A program made the translations under genes and the position numbers. Positions 41,644 to 59,679 of a DNA stretch of 64,000 nt are shown one piece after another. The notes under the pieces are model-generated. The model made no database searches. It was not told where the DNA came from and saw only the letters and a program-made list of their open reading frames with translations. The first letter of the stretch is position 1, and each line of letters starts with the position of its first letter. Where the stretch lies: positions 7,301,261-7,365,260 of the forward strand of contig OZ244976.1 in the NCBI GenBank assembly GCA_965222905.1, in the 5' to 3' direction. The stretch is from Vicinamibacterales bacterium (lineage in GTDB: Bacteria; Acidobacteriota; Vicinamibacteria; Vicinamibacterales; UBA8438).

Positions 41644-42483
41644 GTCGGGTCGGAGGAGGCGCGCCCCGCGGGCGCTGGCCTCCGTCCGCCGCTCAAACGG
41701 TACGTGCGGTTTTCCCGCATACCGCTTTCACGAAGACGTCTTCGCGTGATGAGGACCGATGGAGGAATCAAAGAGTGGACCCTCCTCCGGCCCGTCGGGT
41801 TCAGCCAGTCGGCAAGTCTCCTCGGTCGCTGATGTTGGGGTCTTTCACTCATGGAACTGTCCACCTCAGCGCCCTTGCTCATCTCACCGTCCTGTCTGGT
41901 CCCGACCGTCTTCGCCGGCCGCCTTCCCCAACCCACTCGGTTGCCGCCCCCTGACGGTCACGCGGCTTTCACCGCGCTTCAGGTACTATTCGGCCGTCCG
42001 ACTCCTCGACGAGCATCCCTTCCCACTTCGCTCTCGCTTATAGGGTCAGTTGCCGCGGCGCCACCCGCGGACCCGCCGAGGTCTCCCAGGGTCACGCACT
42101 GGTCTTCCATACCGTGCCGCCCGCAAACACCTTGGTGCGGTGGGTGGATGAGATCGCCTTCGCCTCTGTAGTGCAGGCTCGACCTTGCCCCACCTTTGGC
42201 CGACCGGTTCGTCATGGGGTCGCCCCCTCGACTACGGCCCGGTACTGCTCCGCAAACCCTTCGGACCCCACCTCACGGTGGGCGCCCTGTCCTCCGCAGT
42301 TCCGTCGTGGCGGCTCCAGGTCCACCTTGGCTGTGTCCAGCTTTCGCCTGCGTGCCCGTCTAGGTATCTCCATACCTGCCACCTGCGGCCGGCGAGGCAT
42401 TACCCCCGCCTTTGGATACGGCCCCCCTCATCCGGGGGCCGGAGGGACTTCAACCCTCCTGACCAGTGCGCTGCCTGGCGCAC
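41644..42483 (-). ncRNA. ORF-less group II intron D, copy 1 (840 nt)
   Basis: GTGCG start; DV 'AAGCGGTATGCGGGAAAACCGCACGTACCGTTT'; end ...GACCCGAC; removal restores host DIII 'GAGGCAGTAGT|ACCGATG'. Confidence 0.9.
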
Positions 42484-45654: not shown

Positions 45655-47264
45655 CGACATCGGCTGAAGCACTCCGACGACAAAGGGCCGCCCTGGGCGG
45701 TTCAGCGACCACGCGGGCTACAACGCGAGTAAACGCCGAGCAGGCCTCGAAACGGGTAACGCGGAAGCCGACCCGCCTGGATTACGGGGAAGGCTGCCAG
45801 CGGTCGGGAAGCGAGCGACGCGAGCACCGACCGGTTCCGCCGGGGTAATGGCGGCAGCACGCGTGGACGAGGGGAATGGACGCAACACGGGAAGCCCTGC
45901 CGGCGGCGTGGCACGCGCCAACCGACGACCCGTGAGGGCAAGGTCGGGCCGGCCAGGGTGGCGGAGAAGCCCGTACTGTGCGCCAGGCAGCGCACTGGTC
46001 AGGAGGGTTGAAGTCCCTCCGGCCCCCGGATGAGGGGGGCCGTATCCAAAGGCGGGGGTAATGCCTCGCCGGCCGCAGGTGGCAGGTATGGAGATACCTA
46101 GACGGGCACGCAGGCGAAAGCTGGACACAGCCAAGGTGGACCTGGAGCCGCCACGACGGAACTGCGGAGGACAGGGCGCCCACCGTGAGGTGGGGTCCGA
46201 AGGGTTTGCGGAGCAGTACCGGGCCGTAGTCGAGGGGGCGACCCCATGACGAACCGGTCGGCCAAAGGTGGGGCAAGGTCGAGCCTGCACTACAGAGGCG
46301 AAGGCGATCTCATCCACCCACCGCACCAAGGTGTTTGCGGGCGGCACGGTATGGAAGACCAGTGCGTGACCCTGGGAGACCTCGGCGGGTCCGCGGGTGG
46401 CGCCGCGGCAACTGACCCTATAAGCGAGAGCGAAGTGGGAAGGGATGCTCGTCGAGGAGTCGGACGGCCGAATAGTACCTGAAGCGCGGTGAAAGCCGCG
46501 TGACCGTCAGGGGGCGGCAACCGAGTGGGTTGGGGAAGGCGGCCGGCGAAGACGGTCGGGACCGGACAGGACGGTGAGATGAGCAAGGGCGCTGAGGTGG
46601 ACAGTTCCATGAGTGAAAGACCCCAACATCAGCGACCGAGGAGACTTGCCGACTGGCTGAACCCGACGGGCCGGAGGAGGGTCCACTCTTTGATTCCTCC
46701 ATCGGTCCTCATCACGCGAAGACGTCTTCGTGAAAGCGGTATGCGGGAAAACCGCACGTACCGTTTGAGCGGCGGACGGAGGCCAGCGCCCGCGGGGCGC
46801 GCCTCCTCCGACCCGACACCGTTGAAGCTGGGCAATGCCGGCCGAGGGAAGGGGCTTCAGGTGGAAGGGATGGCGAAAGGGAACAGGCTCCGGGAGTGGC
46901 CGAACGGCCTATCACCCCGATGAATGAGCAGGAATGCCAGACGTCATCACATGCATAAGCGAAGGGGACGACCCGCGCGGTCGCCGTCGTCAGGGCGTCA
47001 ACAGGTCTGACGACGCACCGGCCGGCCAACGCCAGGGTGTGAGCCGGGTGCCACGGCTTGCAAGACCCGCCCGCTGGTCGCAACTGGAAAGCCCGTGTGC
47101 GAGCCGCATGATTCCACTGGAGAGCCCGGTGCCGGAAATCGGCACGCCGGGTTCGGAGAGCGGGGGGAGGAAACGTGCCCATGGGACTCGGACTGCGGCC
47201 CGGTGCGAAAGCGCCGGCAGAGCCACCGACTCCCTACTGGTTACGCGCCTCCCCTCGACTCTAC
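45559..47264 (+). ncRNA. ORF-less group II intron E (866 nt without the nested intron)
   Basis: GTGCG start; EBS1 TGGATT (45778-45783) pairs with exon AATCTA; DV at about 47121-47156; end ...ACTCTAC; removal restores the transposase stop. Confidence 0.88.
45978..46817 (+). ncRNA. ORF-less group II intron D, copy 2 (840 nt)
   Basis: Near-identical inverted copy of 41644-42483; removal restores DIII 'GAAGCCCGTACT|ACCGTTG...GGGCTTC'. Confidence 0.9.
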
Positions 47265-54375: not shown

Positions 54376-54825
54376 GGGTGCGGCTCTTTTTCATAGATTG
54401 CTATCTCGCTCATTCATAAGGGTTTATGTCCGAGGACACTCCCTCTTCAGTGCGTTTTGAGGGGTGACAGCGTCCGGCGAGCGCCCCATCCGCCTCTTTT
54501 CGGGCCGCCGCCCGACCCGACCACGACGCCGGCACGCGCCGGTCCCCCTCAGGCGCGCTCCCTTCTGGACATTCGCGGGGTGCGGCTCTTCATAGAGGAT
54601 TTTTCGCCCTATTCATGGGCTCTTTTGCCCGCGGATGCGTCTCCCCAGTGGCCATTTCGGGAGGGACATCAAGCAGGCCAGCGCCGTACCGGCGTCTTTT
54701 CGGCAGCCAGCCGAGCCTCGTCACGGCGCCGAACACCTTCGGTCTTCTCCCCGACAGGCGCGCTCCCTTCTGGACATTCGCGCGGCGTTCTGGTACGGTG
54801 CCGTGGGAAGGGAGGCAGACCTGCG

Positions 54826-55370
54826 ATGGCTGTGACGACAGGATTCCAGGGACGTACATTCGACGTGCCCCGAACCGGCGTCCCGTGCATCGATCCCCCG
54901 AGGCGAGCCCCGTGCGCAGCGGCCGATGCTGTCTTCGCGGATGCCAAAGCCTTCCTCTCGTCCAGCGAAGCCCGGCAGATGAGCGAGAGCGAACTCGAAC
55001 GGGAACTGCACCGGCGGGGCCAGGAGTTGGTGCGCAAGCTCCTGCAAGGACATCGCGACCAACGCAGCCCGAAAGAGGCTGCTGGTCCGGCCGAGGGCAA
55101 GGGCACCAGCGGTGTCGAGTGCTCGGAGCCGCGCGAGCACGAAAGCCACGCCGAAACGGCCTCCGGCACGATGCAGGTTGTGGGTCTGGGCTGCGCGCGG
55201 CGCGGTCACGACGGCTTGCATCGGCTCGATGCCGCGCTGAACCTGCTGCCGGAGCGCTACTGGGTCGAGATGCGCCGCCGCGTGACCATCGCGACCGCCT
55301 CGCGGGCACCACCGCGTACGCCCTGGAAGCCACCGTGGTACTCGACATCATCCACGTGGCAGCGGCGACG
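54826..55370 (+). pseudogene. Degenerate copy of the ISKra4 transposase 5' part
   Basis: 'KAFLSSSEARQMSESELERELHRRGQELVRKLLQGH' parallels the 55600 ORF, then deleted and frameshifted. Confidence 0.8.
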
Positions 55371-55599
55371 CGGCGTGCGGTGCTCGTCGCCGGCTCATCG
55401 AAGGGCCTGTCGGCATTTGGTCCGCGATCCGATGGGAGCCGACCGGCGCACGGTGACACTTGGCTCCACAGTTGCGGCGGTCCGCAGCCGCCGCGGGTAG
55501 CCGGAGCCTGGATGCGTACTGAGGAGGAACCTGGCCAGCGCGGTGCTGGCGCGCGGCCTGGACAAGCGGCGGTTACGGGGGTTACCGGAGCGTTGAGCC

Positions 55600-57210
55600 A
55601 TGCAAGTTGTTCTCCGCCGCACCGCTCCACCCGCCCCGGCGCCCTATGCGGCGGCGGAGGCTTCTTTCGCGGAGACCAAAGCCTACCTTTCTTCGCGCGA
55701 GGCCCTGCAGATGCGTGAGAGCGACCTCGAACGGGAGTTGAACCGGCGTGGTCAGGAGTTGATGCGCAAGCTCCTGCAAGGGCACCTCGACCAACGCAGC
55801 CCGGGGGAGGCGGCGGGTCCGGTCGAGGGGGCCGACGGCGTCGAGCGTTCGGAGCGGCGGCTGCACGACCGGCAGTTGGAGACGACCTTCGGGACGGTGG
55901 CGGTCGAGCGCCTGGGCTACGCGCGGCACGGTCACGACAGTCTGCATCCGCTCGATGCGTCGCTGAACCTGCCGGCTGAGCGTTACTCGCTCGAGGTGCG
56001 CCGCCGGGTGGCCGAAGCGGCCGCATCGCGGTCGTTCGACGAAGCGCTGTTCGAGCTGTCTCGCCATAGCGGGGCCCAGGTGCCCAAGCGTCAGGCGGAA
56101 CAGTTGGTCGCTCGCGCGGCCGAGGACTTCGACGCCTTCTACGCGGCGCGCCGAGCGGCGGCGGGCGAGCCGGTCGCTGACGAGTCGGTTGTGGTGCTCA
56201 CCTTCGACGGCAAGGGCGTGGTGCTGCATCACGAGGACCTGCGCGAGGCGACGCGCAAGGCGGCCGAGAGGCGCCGGCGGCAACGCGAGCAGCTCTCCCC
56301 GTTCAACCGCCTGCGGCCGGGCGAGAAGAAGCACGCCAAACGCATGGCGACGGTGGCCGCCGTCTACGCGGTCGCGCCGTTGGTGCGCAGCCCGGAGGAT
56401 TTCCTGCAGAGCCTGATGCCCCGACAGCCGGCGGCCAAGGCCAAGAATCGGGCCAAGACCGCGGCGGTGCGTCCTCGCCCGGTGGCCAAACGGGTCTGGG
56501 CGAGCCTCGAACACGATCCGGCCGAGGTGGTCGCCGAGGCGATGCTGGAAGCCGAGCGCCACGACCCGGAGCGCGTCAAGCGCTGGGTCGTGCTCGTCGA
56601 CGGCGCCGAGACGCAACTCGCCCTCGTCGAAGCGGGCGCCGCCGCCTACGGCGTCGACGTGACGGTGATACTCGACATCATTCACGTGGTCGAGTACGTC
56701 TGGAAGGCGGCGCACGTGTTCCATCGCGAGCGGAGCCCCGACGCGGCGCATTGGGCCTGGACGCGCGTGCAGAGCATTCTCGAGGGCAAGTCCAGCAAGG
56801 TGGCCGCGGCGATGCGGCGGGCGGCGACCGTCGCAGGCTTGTCGAGCGACACCCGCAAGCCGGTCGATACGTGCGCCGACTACCTGCAGAAGTACGCGCC
56901 GTATCTGCACTACGACCGCTACCTCGCGGCGGGCTATCCCATCGCCACCGGCGTGATCGAAGGGGCGTGCCGGTACCTGGTCCGCGACCGGATGGAGTTG
57001 ACCGGAGCCCGCTGGCGGCTGGTCGGCGCCGAGGCGGTCCTGAAGCTGCGGGCGCTACGGGCCAGCGGCGACTTCGATGCGTACTGGGACTTCCACGAAG
57101 CGCGCGAGTACGAGCGGAACCACGCCCAGCGCTACGCTGACGGGATAGCACCGCCGGTCAGCGAGCCGCCCCCATCGCCCTCCTCACCTCGCCTTCGCCG
57201 GGTCAAGTAG
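55600..57210 (+). CDS. ISKra4 family transposase
   Basis: 'LTFDGKGVV', 'LVDG', 'LDIIHVVEYVW', 'PIATGVIEGACR.LV.DRM'. Confidence 0.92.
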   Translation: MQVVLRRTAPPAPAPYAAAEASFAETKAYLSSREALQMRESDLERELNRRGQELMRKLLQGHLDQRSPGEAAGPVEGADGVERSERRLHDRQLETTFGTVAVERLGYARHGHDSLHPLDASLNLPAERYSLEVRRRVAEAAASRSFDEALFELSRHSGAQVPKRQAEQLVARAAEDFDAFYAARRAAAGEPVADESVVVLTFDGKGVVLHHEDLREATRKAAERRRRQREQLSPFNRLRPGEKKHAKRMATVAAVYAVAPLVRSPEDFLQSLMPRQPAAKAKNRAKTAAVRPRPVAKRVWASLEHDPAEVVAEAMLEAERHDPERVKRWVVLVDGAETQLALVEAGAAAYGVDVTVILDIIHVVEYVWKAAHVFHRERSPDAAHWAWTRVQSILEGKSSKVAAAMRRAATVAGLSSDTRKPVDTCADYLQKYAPYLHYDRYLAAGYPIATGVIEGACRYLVRDRMELTGARWRLVGAEAVLKLRALRASGDFDAYWDFHEAREYERNHAQRYADGIAPPVSEPPPSPSSPRLRRVK

Positions 57211-57278
57211 CTCTTGCCATGCCGCTCGCAGCCCCTCCTGGACCCCTCTGGACCGCCGACGCAAAAGAGCCGCACCCC

Positions 57279-57742
57279 TTCCCACTTCGCTCTCGCTTAT
57301 AGGGTCAGTTGCCGCGGCGCCACCCGCGGACCCGCCGAGGTCTCCCAGGGTCACGCACTGGTCTTCCATACCGTGCCGCCCGCAAACACCTTGGTGCGGT
57401 GGGTGGATGAGATCGCCTTCGCCTCCATAGTGCAGGCTCGACCTTGCCCCACCTTTGGCCGACCGGTTCGTCATGGGGTCGCCCCCTCGACTACGGCCCG
57501 GTACTGCTCCGCAAACCCTTCGGACCCCACCTCACGGTGGGCGCCCTGTCCTCCGCAGTTCCGTCGTGGCGGCTCCAGGTCCACCTTGGCTGTGTCCAGC
57601 TTTCGCCTGCGTGCCCGTTTAGGTATCTCCATACCTGCCACCTGCGGCCGGCGAGGCATTACCCCCGCCTTTGGATACGGCCCCCCTCATCCGGGGGCCG
57701 GAGGGACTTCAACCCTCCTGACCAGTGCGCTGCCTGGCGCAC
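57279..57742 (-). ncRNA. ORF-less intron D, copy 3 (5' part; nested in copy 4, truncated by ISKra4)
   Basis: GTGCG at 57742 directly after copy 4's own DIII '...GGCCGAATAGT'. Confidence 0.88.
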
Positions 57743-58241
57743 ACTATTCGGCCGTCCGACTCCTCGACGAGCATCCCTTCCCACTTCGCTCTCGCTTATA
57801 GGGTCAGTTGCCGCGGCGCCACCCGCGGACCCGCCGAGGTCTCCCAGGGTCACGCACTGGTCTTCCATACCGTGCCGCCCGCAAACACCTTGGTGCGGTG
57901 GGTGGATGAGATCGCCTTCGCCTCCATAGTGCAGGCTCGACCTTGCCCCACCTTTGGCCGACCGGTTCGTCATGGGGTCGCCCCCTCGACTACGGCCCGG
58001 TACTGCTCCGCAAACCCTTCGGACCCCACCTCACGGTGGGCGCCCTGTCCTCCGCAGTTCCGTCGTGGCGGCTCCAGGTCCACCTTGGCTGTGTCCAGCT
58101 TTCGCCTGCGTGCCCGTTTAGGTATCTCCATACCTGCCACCTGCGGCCGGCGAGGCATTACCCCCGCCTTTGGATACGGCCCCCCTCATCCGGGGGCCGG
58201 AGGGACTTCAACCCTCCTGACCAGTGCGCTGCCTGGCGCAC
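57743..58241 (-). ncRNA. ORF-less intron D, copy 4 (first 499 nt, up to its DIII target site)
   Basis: Matches 45978-46476; 5' exon ...GACCTCGTAGT. Confidence 0.88.
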
Positions 58242-58896
58242 ACTACGAGGTCTTCCTGACGACGGTGGCGGCGTGCTGCCCACGCCGCCGCCCCGCGCCG
58301 GCAGCACGCGGACCGACGCGCCCGCGCCGACGCGGCAGCACGGGCGGTAGCTCCTACCGAAAACCTGCGGTCCTCGGCAACGGCAGGAGCACATGCGTTG
58401 CACCTGTCGGGTCCGTCGCAGTCCCGACCGCCACGGCGCTCATCGTCACCGGCCGGACACCTCCACGGACGCCACAGCGGGCGCCGACGAGGTCGCTTCG
58501 TAGGTCAACGGATCCCCGTCCGGGCCTCGGAACGCTCCCCGATGTCGATTACGGCCGTCTCGTTCACAGGCAGGACCTGATCGGCCAACGGACCGGTCGC
58601 CACCGGAGAACGGTTGGAGACCCCCGGCACCGTGGTCGTCATCCGGGATCGCCCGCCCGTCACGTGTGACCAGTGCTCGATGACCTTGTCGCGGTACTCC
58701 GCGTGCAGGCGGAGCATGTCGGGGTGGGGCGTCTGCCCAGGTCCCAACAGGTACACGAAGCCTGCGTTGAAGTCCTTCTGCGCCTCCGCCTCGGGGGGTA
58801 CTCTCGGTCCCTCCGCCGCTACGACCTGCTCGATGCTGAGGGCGGCGCGGTCTGGCAAGGTTCGTGGCGGCGACGACCCGGTTCACGTCCAGCGGT
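58242..58896 (-). pseudogene. Fragment of a large surface/secreted protein with a cadherin/Ig-like repeat
   Basis: 'NRSPVATGPLADQVL', 'PDGDPLTYEATSS.PAVASV' in shifting frames. Confidence 0.5.
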
Positions 58897-58970: not shown

Positions 58971-59261
58971 TCATTCCGCCGCGTCATCACGGTGCGGACG
59001 CTGGCGGTTGCGCTCCTGTTGACTGAGTTCGGCCTCACGTCGGCGATAGCTCCGGCCTTCGATGAGCAGGATCTCGACGTGGTGGGTCAGTCGGTCGATC
59101 AGTGCGACGGCGCACGAGGCGTTGGGAAAGACGGTGTCCCAGCGCTTGAATGGCAGGTTGGTGGTGATCAGCAGGGAGCGGTGCTCATAGCGGCGGCTGA
59201 CGAGCTGGAAGATCAGGTCGGCGGCGCGGGCATCGTAGGAGAGGTACCCGAGCTCATCGAT
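58971..59261 (-). pseudogene. istB: IS21 helper ATPase IstB, C-terminal fragment cut at Walker B; IS end TGTTGCCGA at 58897
   Basis: 'IDELGYL...RRYE..S..ITTNLPF..W...DRLTHH...G.SYR'. Confidence 0.88.
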
Positions 59262-59270
59262 TAATGTTGA

Positions 59271-59554
59271 GCTCCACATTAATCGATTTTTGGGGTATCC
59301 ATTTAACCGGAGTCAGGGGCGTAACGGGGCCACGGTTCGCCCGGCGAGGGTTGTTTCGGGTGCGTGAAGTCGTGGTCGCCCGTGAACCGATGCGCCACCG
59401 GGGCCTCATCGCCGCCGGACAGCCCCGCCAGCACCCCCGCGGGTGCGGTGGGCACCCGCCGAGCCTCGCGTGTCCTTCAGCGGCCGCCGGCGGCGAGCAC
59501 GGCGCCGGGCCACTCCGGTTACATGGATACCCCAGAAATCGATTAATGTTGAGC
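59271..59554. repeat. 284-bp segment bounded by 43-bp inverted repeats that include RIT end motifs
   Basis: 59271-59313 is the reverse complement of 59512-59554 with 3 mismatches. Confidence 0.8.
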
Positions 59555-59679
59555 GATCGGTAATGTGGAGTAGCCGCCTTTTGTTCCCGCGGCGCCGAGC
59601 GCATTCCCTCCAGGACTCCACATTACGTACGTAGCATCGGGACCGTGCCAATCCCGGCACCGCGTTCCTGGAGGTCCCG

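Follow-up and report, generated by a model that had tools for sequence, protein, structure and literature searches.

The apparent 499-bp tandem repeat of a Vicinamibacterales genome as the probable remnant of a small group II intron inserted in its own copy

In the 64,000-nucleotide stretch of a Vicinamibacterales genome analysed here (the window), Tandem Repeats Finder detects a single array at 57272-58245 (period 499, 2.0 copies, 99% matches), and the question raised by this locus is how such a repeat has been formed. The first 30 nt of the repeated unit (GTGCGCC...) are found four times in the window, at 42483 (-), 45978 (+), 57742 (-) and 58241 (-), against a chance expectation of none. 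A first-pass annotation had read the array as a self-insertion and had proposed that a two-base change in the EBS1 loop, from ACUACA to ACUAUG, relaxed self-avoidance and permits iterative self-nesting. That interpretation is partly supported by our study: the EBS1 change is real, and it is not needed for self-nesting. Judged from its sequence, the "tandem repeat" appears to be the broken remnant of a small group II intron inserted in its own copy, and the nest of the two copies is a dead relic. The reading that we favour, with a probability of about 0.7, is that an ORF-less intron of a family homing into C(A/G)TAGT|A inserted itself at its own motif and was later damaged by an insertion sequence, ACUAUG being an ordinary EBS1.

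The repeated element is exactly 840 nt long (GTGCG...CCGAC), as delimited by comparison of a filled site with an empty paralogous site, and its termini fit the group II ends GUGYG / AY. Genome-wide, eight full 840-nt copies and two partial ones (copies 3 and 4, which form the array) are present. Two of the full copies lie in the window:

41644-42483, minus strand: copy 1, full 840 nt, loop ACUACA, inside a host group II intron at GGCAGTAGT|ACCG.
45978-46817, plus strand: copy 2, full 840 nt, loop ACUACA, inside another host intron at CCCGTACT|ACCG.

The own AATAGT of copy 2 (46471-46476) is unoccupied. The eight full copies occupy six distinct contexts, as three of them have 100% identical flanks and represent one duplicated composite. 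Their 5' exons end in GTAGT, ATAGT, GGAGT, GTACT (twice) and TAGGT, and the 3' exons all start with ACCG. The copies of this mini-intron, referred to below as S, differ mutually at 0-1 nt, and the host flanks are 54-77% identical with the exception of the one triplicated composite. The site in the host of copy 1 follows the first few codons of a frame which opens with ATG codons and runs on into the reverse transcriptase (RT).

S is a group II intron ribozyme. The Rfam model RF00029 (domain V/VI) scores 39.4 bits on the last 86 nt of the element against a threshold of 40, and RF02001 gives a weak match on nt 202-388 (25.3 bits vs a threshold of 32), in which the variable bases fall in the loop of a conserved hairpin. 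The consensus fold of six ORF-less mini-introns has 216 pairs, 43 of them with compensatory changes on both sides, and includes a 34-nt DV-like hairpin; the domains of this fold were numbered tentatively. An ORF-bearing sister, lineage B, is 96% identical to S over nt 1-499 and carries ~1.18 kb of extra sequence between S nt 712 and 713. The product of a B-like copy (L055:3544-4950, minus strand) is a 468-aa protein in which RVT_1 (1.6e-40) and GIIM (6.6e-19) domains are present and an endonuclease domain is missing. As the extra segment of B encodes an RT, S is to be regarded as an ORF-deleted mini-intron. The frame of B is open in the sister genome G009. A tblastn search of the present genome with the B-like protein gave no cognate RT for S: the best RT hits were only 33-39% identical, the exceptions being a short, 55%-identical fragment and, within the S copies, remnants of 60 aa. 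Among candidate pairing elements, CUCAUCC (nt 334-340) matched X-type host sites at 7/7 positions, but it misfits the common GTCAGCAG-type exons and was rejected as EBS2.

The features of the array itself and of its immediate surroundings are as follows:

57743-58241, minus strand: copy 4 (outer), intron nt 1-499 with its own AATAGT at the end, these 499 nt being 99.4% identical to those of the eight full copies.
57278-57742, minus strand: copy 3 (inner), intron nt 1-465, its GTGCG start lying immediately after the AATAGT of copy 4.
57925-57930, minus strand: EBS1 of copy 4, ACUAUG (intron nt 312-317).
57426-57431, minus strand: EBS1 of copy 3, ACUAUG.
58242-58249, minus strand: 5' exon end of copy 4, CTCGTAGT, in unique, non-intron DNA.
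54376-57277, plus strand: 2.9-kb insertion sequence with the ends GGGTGCGGCTCT...AGAGCCGCACCC, which cuts copy 3.

In the full copies nt 494-499 read AATAGT and are followed by ACC, whereas in copy 4 the AATAGT is followed by GTGCGCC, that is, by nt 1 of copy 3. The junction AATAGT|GTGCG is exact, and the first-pass observation that copy 3 starts directly after nt 499 of copy 4 is thereby confirmed as a precise self-insertion at AATAGT|ACC. On the minus strand, copies 3 and 4 are identical over nt 1-467 and unrelated from nt 468 on. Copy 3 cannot be treated as an intact unit: its nt 466-467 are common to the end of the insertion sequence, and it thus stops at nt 465-467, against window position 57277. 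A whole-genome search for the 3' halves of copy 3 (nt 468-840) and copy 4 (nt 500-840) found none outside the eight full copies. The iterative nesting that had been proposed amounts in the window to two levels, both truncated. A twintron, with an inner intron between both outer halves and exact junctions, is not seen here, the 5' junction alone remaining; as the 3' junctions of the nest are lost, retrohoming cannot be shown from both sides at this locus.

The same array could also have arisen through tandem duplication (slippage or unequal crossing-over) or as an assembly artefact, without any intron mobility. Such an origin would agree with the presence of 5' parts only in the window and with the contigs of public sequencing runs, as no contig bridging 57742/57743 was found among the matches listed from X15, the run that holds the region best, or from X17; one X15 contig runs from the unique 5' flank into copy 4 as far as its nt 25. 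On the other hand, the junction lies exactly at intron nt 1 and after the target motif of the family, an identical junction is found in complete nests elsewhere, and contigs of two other runs span it (X18, 57428-57866, with 0 differences; X20, 57414-57924, with 4 differences, which match B-type states). The X18 and X20 contigs may be derived from related organisms. We consider duplication or artefact highly improbable.

The 5' flank of copy 4 is unique in the genome, and its matches to relatives are limited to a part of the upstream gene and a 65-nt GC-rich repeat. Rfam group II models, applied to this flank and to look-alike regions in search of a host intron around copy 4, gave no match, and copy 4 in this respect stands apart from the full copies of the window. 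The GC-rich element of ~65 nt lies at 58275-58346, just upstream of copy 4; it recurs in the genome with 95% identity at C2:4851875, is present in several genomes of the order and has no Rfam match. Further upstream, nested short inverted repeats at 59254-59600 (ATTAATGTTGAGC..., CCATTTAACCGGAG...) represent more stacked insertion sequences beside the locus.

The insertion sequence at the inner end of copy 3 has 32 other full-length copies in the genome with an identity of at least 98.4%, carries 12-bp inverted ends and two ORFs (347 and 536 aa), and is highly active in this genome. Pfam searches with the two ORFs gave nothing at E 0.01 or better. A 9-bp target-site duplication was found in nine of ten sampled copies, whereas the copy at 54376-57277 is without it and has unrelated flanks. 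From the missing duplication and the lack of any nt 468-840 remnant in the genome, we infer that the element was inserted into copy 3 and that a later rearrangement deleted the rest.

The position of the self-insertion within the intron was analysed on the consensus fold, where nt 499 lies at the foot of the 5' strand of an 82-nt stem-loop (nt 488-569). This stem-loop is the second domain after domain I and immediately precedes the ORF-holding stem. The earliest ATG in frame with the B-lineage ORF falls within it (nt 531), and one relative has an uninterrupted frame reaching from the site to the RT. The earlier assignment of the site to DIII agrees with counting of the domains in this fold, which gives III, though the stem-loop may instead be the start of domain IV. 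A reading of nt 468-515 as a vestigial ORF start was rejected, as a conserved in-frame stop sits in a conserved GAAA hairpin; the protein-like similarity of this segment may just mirror RNA structure.

The loop of copies 3 and 4 is GCACTATGG and that of the eight full copies is GCACTACAG, the two differing at nt 316-317 (TG vs CA in the loop GCACTAYRG). The reported change from ACUACA to ACUAUG is therefore real, and the remark that few other differences exist can be made exact, with only one more in 499 nt, at nt 124 (A vs G). The most frequent 5' exon end of the family, CAUAGU, is exactly complementary to ACUAUG, and the loop is on this ground EBS1. The pairing scheme that had been put forward also holds: between ACUAU and AUAGU the pairing is perfect, with ACUAC there is a C.A mismatch at -5, and ACUAUG fits the CGTAGT of copy 4 with one wobble.

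The direction of the change is a separate matter. Among the matches listed, the loops of relatives are ACTATG in 90 of 122, ACTACA in 28, and TT and CG in 2 each, and all 28 ACTACA loops are from one sister genome (G009), besides the genome of the window itself. ACUAUG is the ordinary, ancestral EBS1 of the family and ACUACA a derived form seen in the mini-intron lineage alone. The A at nt 124 of copies 3 and 4 is also present in a 97%-identical mini-intron of another MAG and in B-like copies, and TG is common to every outgroup. T118 and T145 of copies 3 and 4 are common only to the ACTACA copies of this genome, and the S copies of G009 share CA with those copies. Given the shared T118 and T145, parsimony gives about equal support to a local CA-to-TG change and to survival of the older allele, and retention and reversion need about similar numbers of events. 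The haplotype of copies 3 and 4 (T118, A124, T145) had 0 matches in public genome contigs and 0 in metagenome contigs. The 97%-identical 840-nt mini-intron of the other MAG (L023:1963-2802, L044 and L129) has kept ACUAUG, and its own motif reads AATAGC, changed at -1, which would weaken the pairing with its own EBS1.

These allele data bear on the causal part of the first-pass interpretation, according to which a two-base EBS1 change in this genome removed the -5 mismatch with AATAGT, abolished self-avoidance and caused the self-insertion. The full pairing of ACUAU with AUAGU, against the C.A mismatch of ACUAC, agrees with it, as do the genome-specific T118 and T145 which copies 3 and 4 carry like the ACUACA copies. 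In this genome none of the 8 ACUACA copies is invaded and the one testable ACUAUG copy is invaded (a single event); over two genomes, ACUAUG introns made two of the three AATAGT own-site invasions despite being the minority. The ancestral position of ACUAUG speaks against such a switch, and so does one ACTACA copy of this genome that sits at a host AATAGT, where the empty paralog also reads AATAGT.

Further evidence on this point is from the sister genome G009, in which nests of three levels are complete, the inner introns being flanked by both outer halves at two loci. At L112 the order is B[1-499]-S1[1-499]-S2[1-840]-S1[500-840]-B[500-...], with all junctions exact and with ACTACA in both S1 and S2. 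At L069 it is S[1-499]-B[1-499]-S[1-840]-B[500-840 with ORF]-S[500-840], with intact junctions. The position of S2 within S1 means that an ACUACA intron entered the AATAGT of another ACUACA intron, which is the very outcome, self-insertion of the ACUAC allele, that the first-pass annotation had named as counting against its own proposal. In G009, each of the four distinct B contexts holds an ACUACA S intron at AGTAGT, the own motif of B. At L112:1073-4494, the outer B has ~3.4 kb between nt 712 and its 3' end compared with ~1.18 kb expected, and its ORF region probably holds yet another insertion.

When alleles were compared with targets over the S/B clade, ATAGT was the target in 3/17 ACTACA contexts vs 5/11 ACTATG contexts (Fisher p = 0.20, not significant, and generous at that, since the events are related and not independent). 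Moreover, distant relatives most often combine ACUAUG with AATAGT as their own motif (18 of 32 readable), yet among the matches listed none of 64 distant-relative junctions is a self-nest or lies in a family member's own motif. We hold the two-base change as the cause of the self-insertion to be unlikely.

When public genomes were scanned for the EBS1 hairpin, two positions of the loop being left free, at least 115 stretches from many phyla were obtained. Among the matches listed, relatives are 71-87% identical to S over the longest alignments, mostly 75-82%, and most have an insert of ~1.2 kb. At 64 distinct relative junctions among these matches, the 5' exon ends in CATAGT (30) or CGTAGT (17), together 47 of the 64. 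Rfam found the D1-D4 model of another intron just upstream and on the same strand at 16 of 19 loci from many phyla, and each of the remaining three has under 300 nt of upstream sequence. Across phyla, the family occupies other group II introns, at the motif C(A/G)TAGT|A. After scripted joining of the exons, an RT frame is open through the site in 4 of 37 hosts, and the others look decayed or interrupted; a site at the beginning of the RT reading frame is thus supported in some of the hosts only. A literature search limited to main texts found no paper describing this C(A/G)TAGT|A-homing intron family.

In window 41985-42483 and in the host introns of L025, L104 and L119, the codons for the RT N-terminus (...SD..IVP.K..N) coincide in part with an RNA hairpin whose loop is UGAAAG. 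This hairpin is conserved without coding in the invading family, and the N-terminal "motif" of the host RT may partly reflect RNA constraint. At L100:4384-6974, one family member follows another head to tail, starting right after the last base of its neighbour (CCGAC) and not at the usual motif.

Own motifs and targets differ most clearly at position -6. Among the matches listed, the targets have C at -6 in 57 of 64 and never A. The own motif among 43 distinct segments of distant relatives in the same set of matches is AATAGT in 18, AGTAGT in 8, TGTAGT in 4, GATAGT and CATAGT in 1 each, and unparsed in 11, so that -6 is A in 26 of 32 readable motifs and C in 1. Self and prey might accordingly be told apart at -6, where the position-6 G of EBS1 would pair with the C of prey and meet an A in the own motif; ACUACA would have lost this check, and the nest of copies 3 and 4 would be a rare leak. 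The occupation of four distinct B copies of G009 by ACUACA introns at AGTAGT would be expected from this, but the B::S composites may have moved as single units, and the four events are perhaps not independent. In addition, A at -6 did not keep out two ACUAUG introns, namely copy 3 and the B inside S at L069. Discrimination at -6 with a leak at this locus is in our estimate unlikely, though it merits some weight. A broader proposal, drawn from the same motifs, seems possible though on the doubtful side: introns spread across phyla would parasitise introns at GUCGGA...C(A/G)UAGU|A, a site which every member would have to carry as well, the separation of self from prey would be made largely by the EBS1 position-6 G against the -6 base, and ACUACA would have dropped this check, which may explain the sibling and self nests in two sister genomes.

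Under the favoured reading, the locus may have been formed in three steps. One copy of the 840-nt intron (copy 4) would have been inserted at an ectopic CGTAGT, and an identical second copy (copy 3) would then have been inserted after its nt 499, at AATAGT|ACC, presumably by EBS1-guided reverse splicing followed by reverse transcription. Later the 2.9-kb insertion sequence would have entered copy 3, and a rearrangement there would have removed everything downstream. The pairing at -5 would shift the preference for a site and would not decide the ability to nest in self or sibling. The structure of the locus, its alleles, the nests at other loci and the insertion-sequence damage are directly seen, whereas how the intron moved, in which order the steps took place and where the reverse transcriptase came from are inferred.

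Intron-in-intron insertion is known from several systems. In Thermosynechococcus elongatus, the ORF-less TeI3 (family F3) is found in TeI4 introns, with identical copies at one site between start codons of TeI4 RT genes, and the ORF remnant of TeI3h contains TeI3i (Mohr, Ghanem and Lambowitz 2010, PMC2882425). In that system mobilisation in trans was demonstrated, and the families are told apart by their EBS sequences (PMC2882425). Like TeI3 as described there, S is a deletion derivative of an ORF-bearing sibling, and diverged hosts carry identical ORF-less mini-introns at a single conserved position, close to where the RT ORF begins. Unlike TeI3 in that description, the invaded copy is the same element with identical sequence, the family is spread over many phyla and nests in G009 reach three levels; also, the present genome is without a cognate RT, and the mobility of S here is deduced from sequence. 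In Methanosarcina, up to five introns have become nested through repeated homing into other introns (Zimmerly and Semper 2015, PMC4424553), and in M. acetivorans site-specific homing is described as balanced by deletions (Dai and Zimmerly 2003, as summarised in PMC4424553 and PMC2882425). As far as these summaries go, repeated site-specific homing of introns into introns is common to both cases, but the Methanosarcina nests are archaeal and involve other intron lineages and sites.

The hypermobile group II intron cox1i1149g2 of Phlegmariurus mitochondria is found in its own domain IV and at nine further sites (Zumkeller, Gerke and Knoop 2020, PMC7049729). From the account given there, self-insertion is alike in both elements; cox1i1149g2 is organellar, whereas S is bacterial and has its self site within the target motif of the whole family. 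The RYADD-homing introns B.th.I3, M.a.I5, UA.I3 and P.l.I2 form a cross-taxon lineage at one conserved site in the RT genes of other introns, with proteins lacking an endonuclease domain and a target conserved only at IBS1 and IBS2 (Tourasse and Kolsto 2008, PMC2504315). They resemble the present family, on the features reported, in being cross-taxon and site-specialised, and differ in the target, which is formed by the YADD codons there and by C(A/G)TAGT|A near the ORF start here. Nesting is not mentioned in PMC3552965. Self-insertion is thus already known for group II introns, and the mechanism at this locus is ordinary for the element class.

Being a dead and truncated relic, the nest of copies 3 and 4 matters little as a single locus. 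The value of the finding lies at the level of the system, which provides natural allele-by-target data on a retroelement that preys on its own kind while carrying its own target. The natural pair of EBS1 alleles and the four target variants are suited to mobility assays. Further, the nests show intron-in-intron homing building repeat stacks in genomes rich in insertion sequences.
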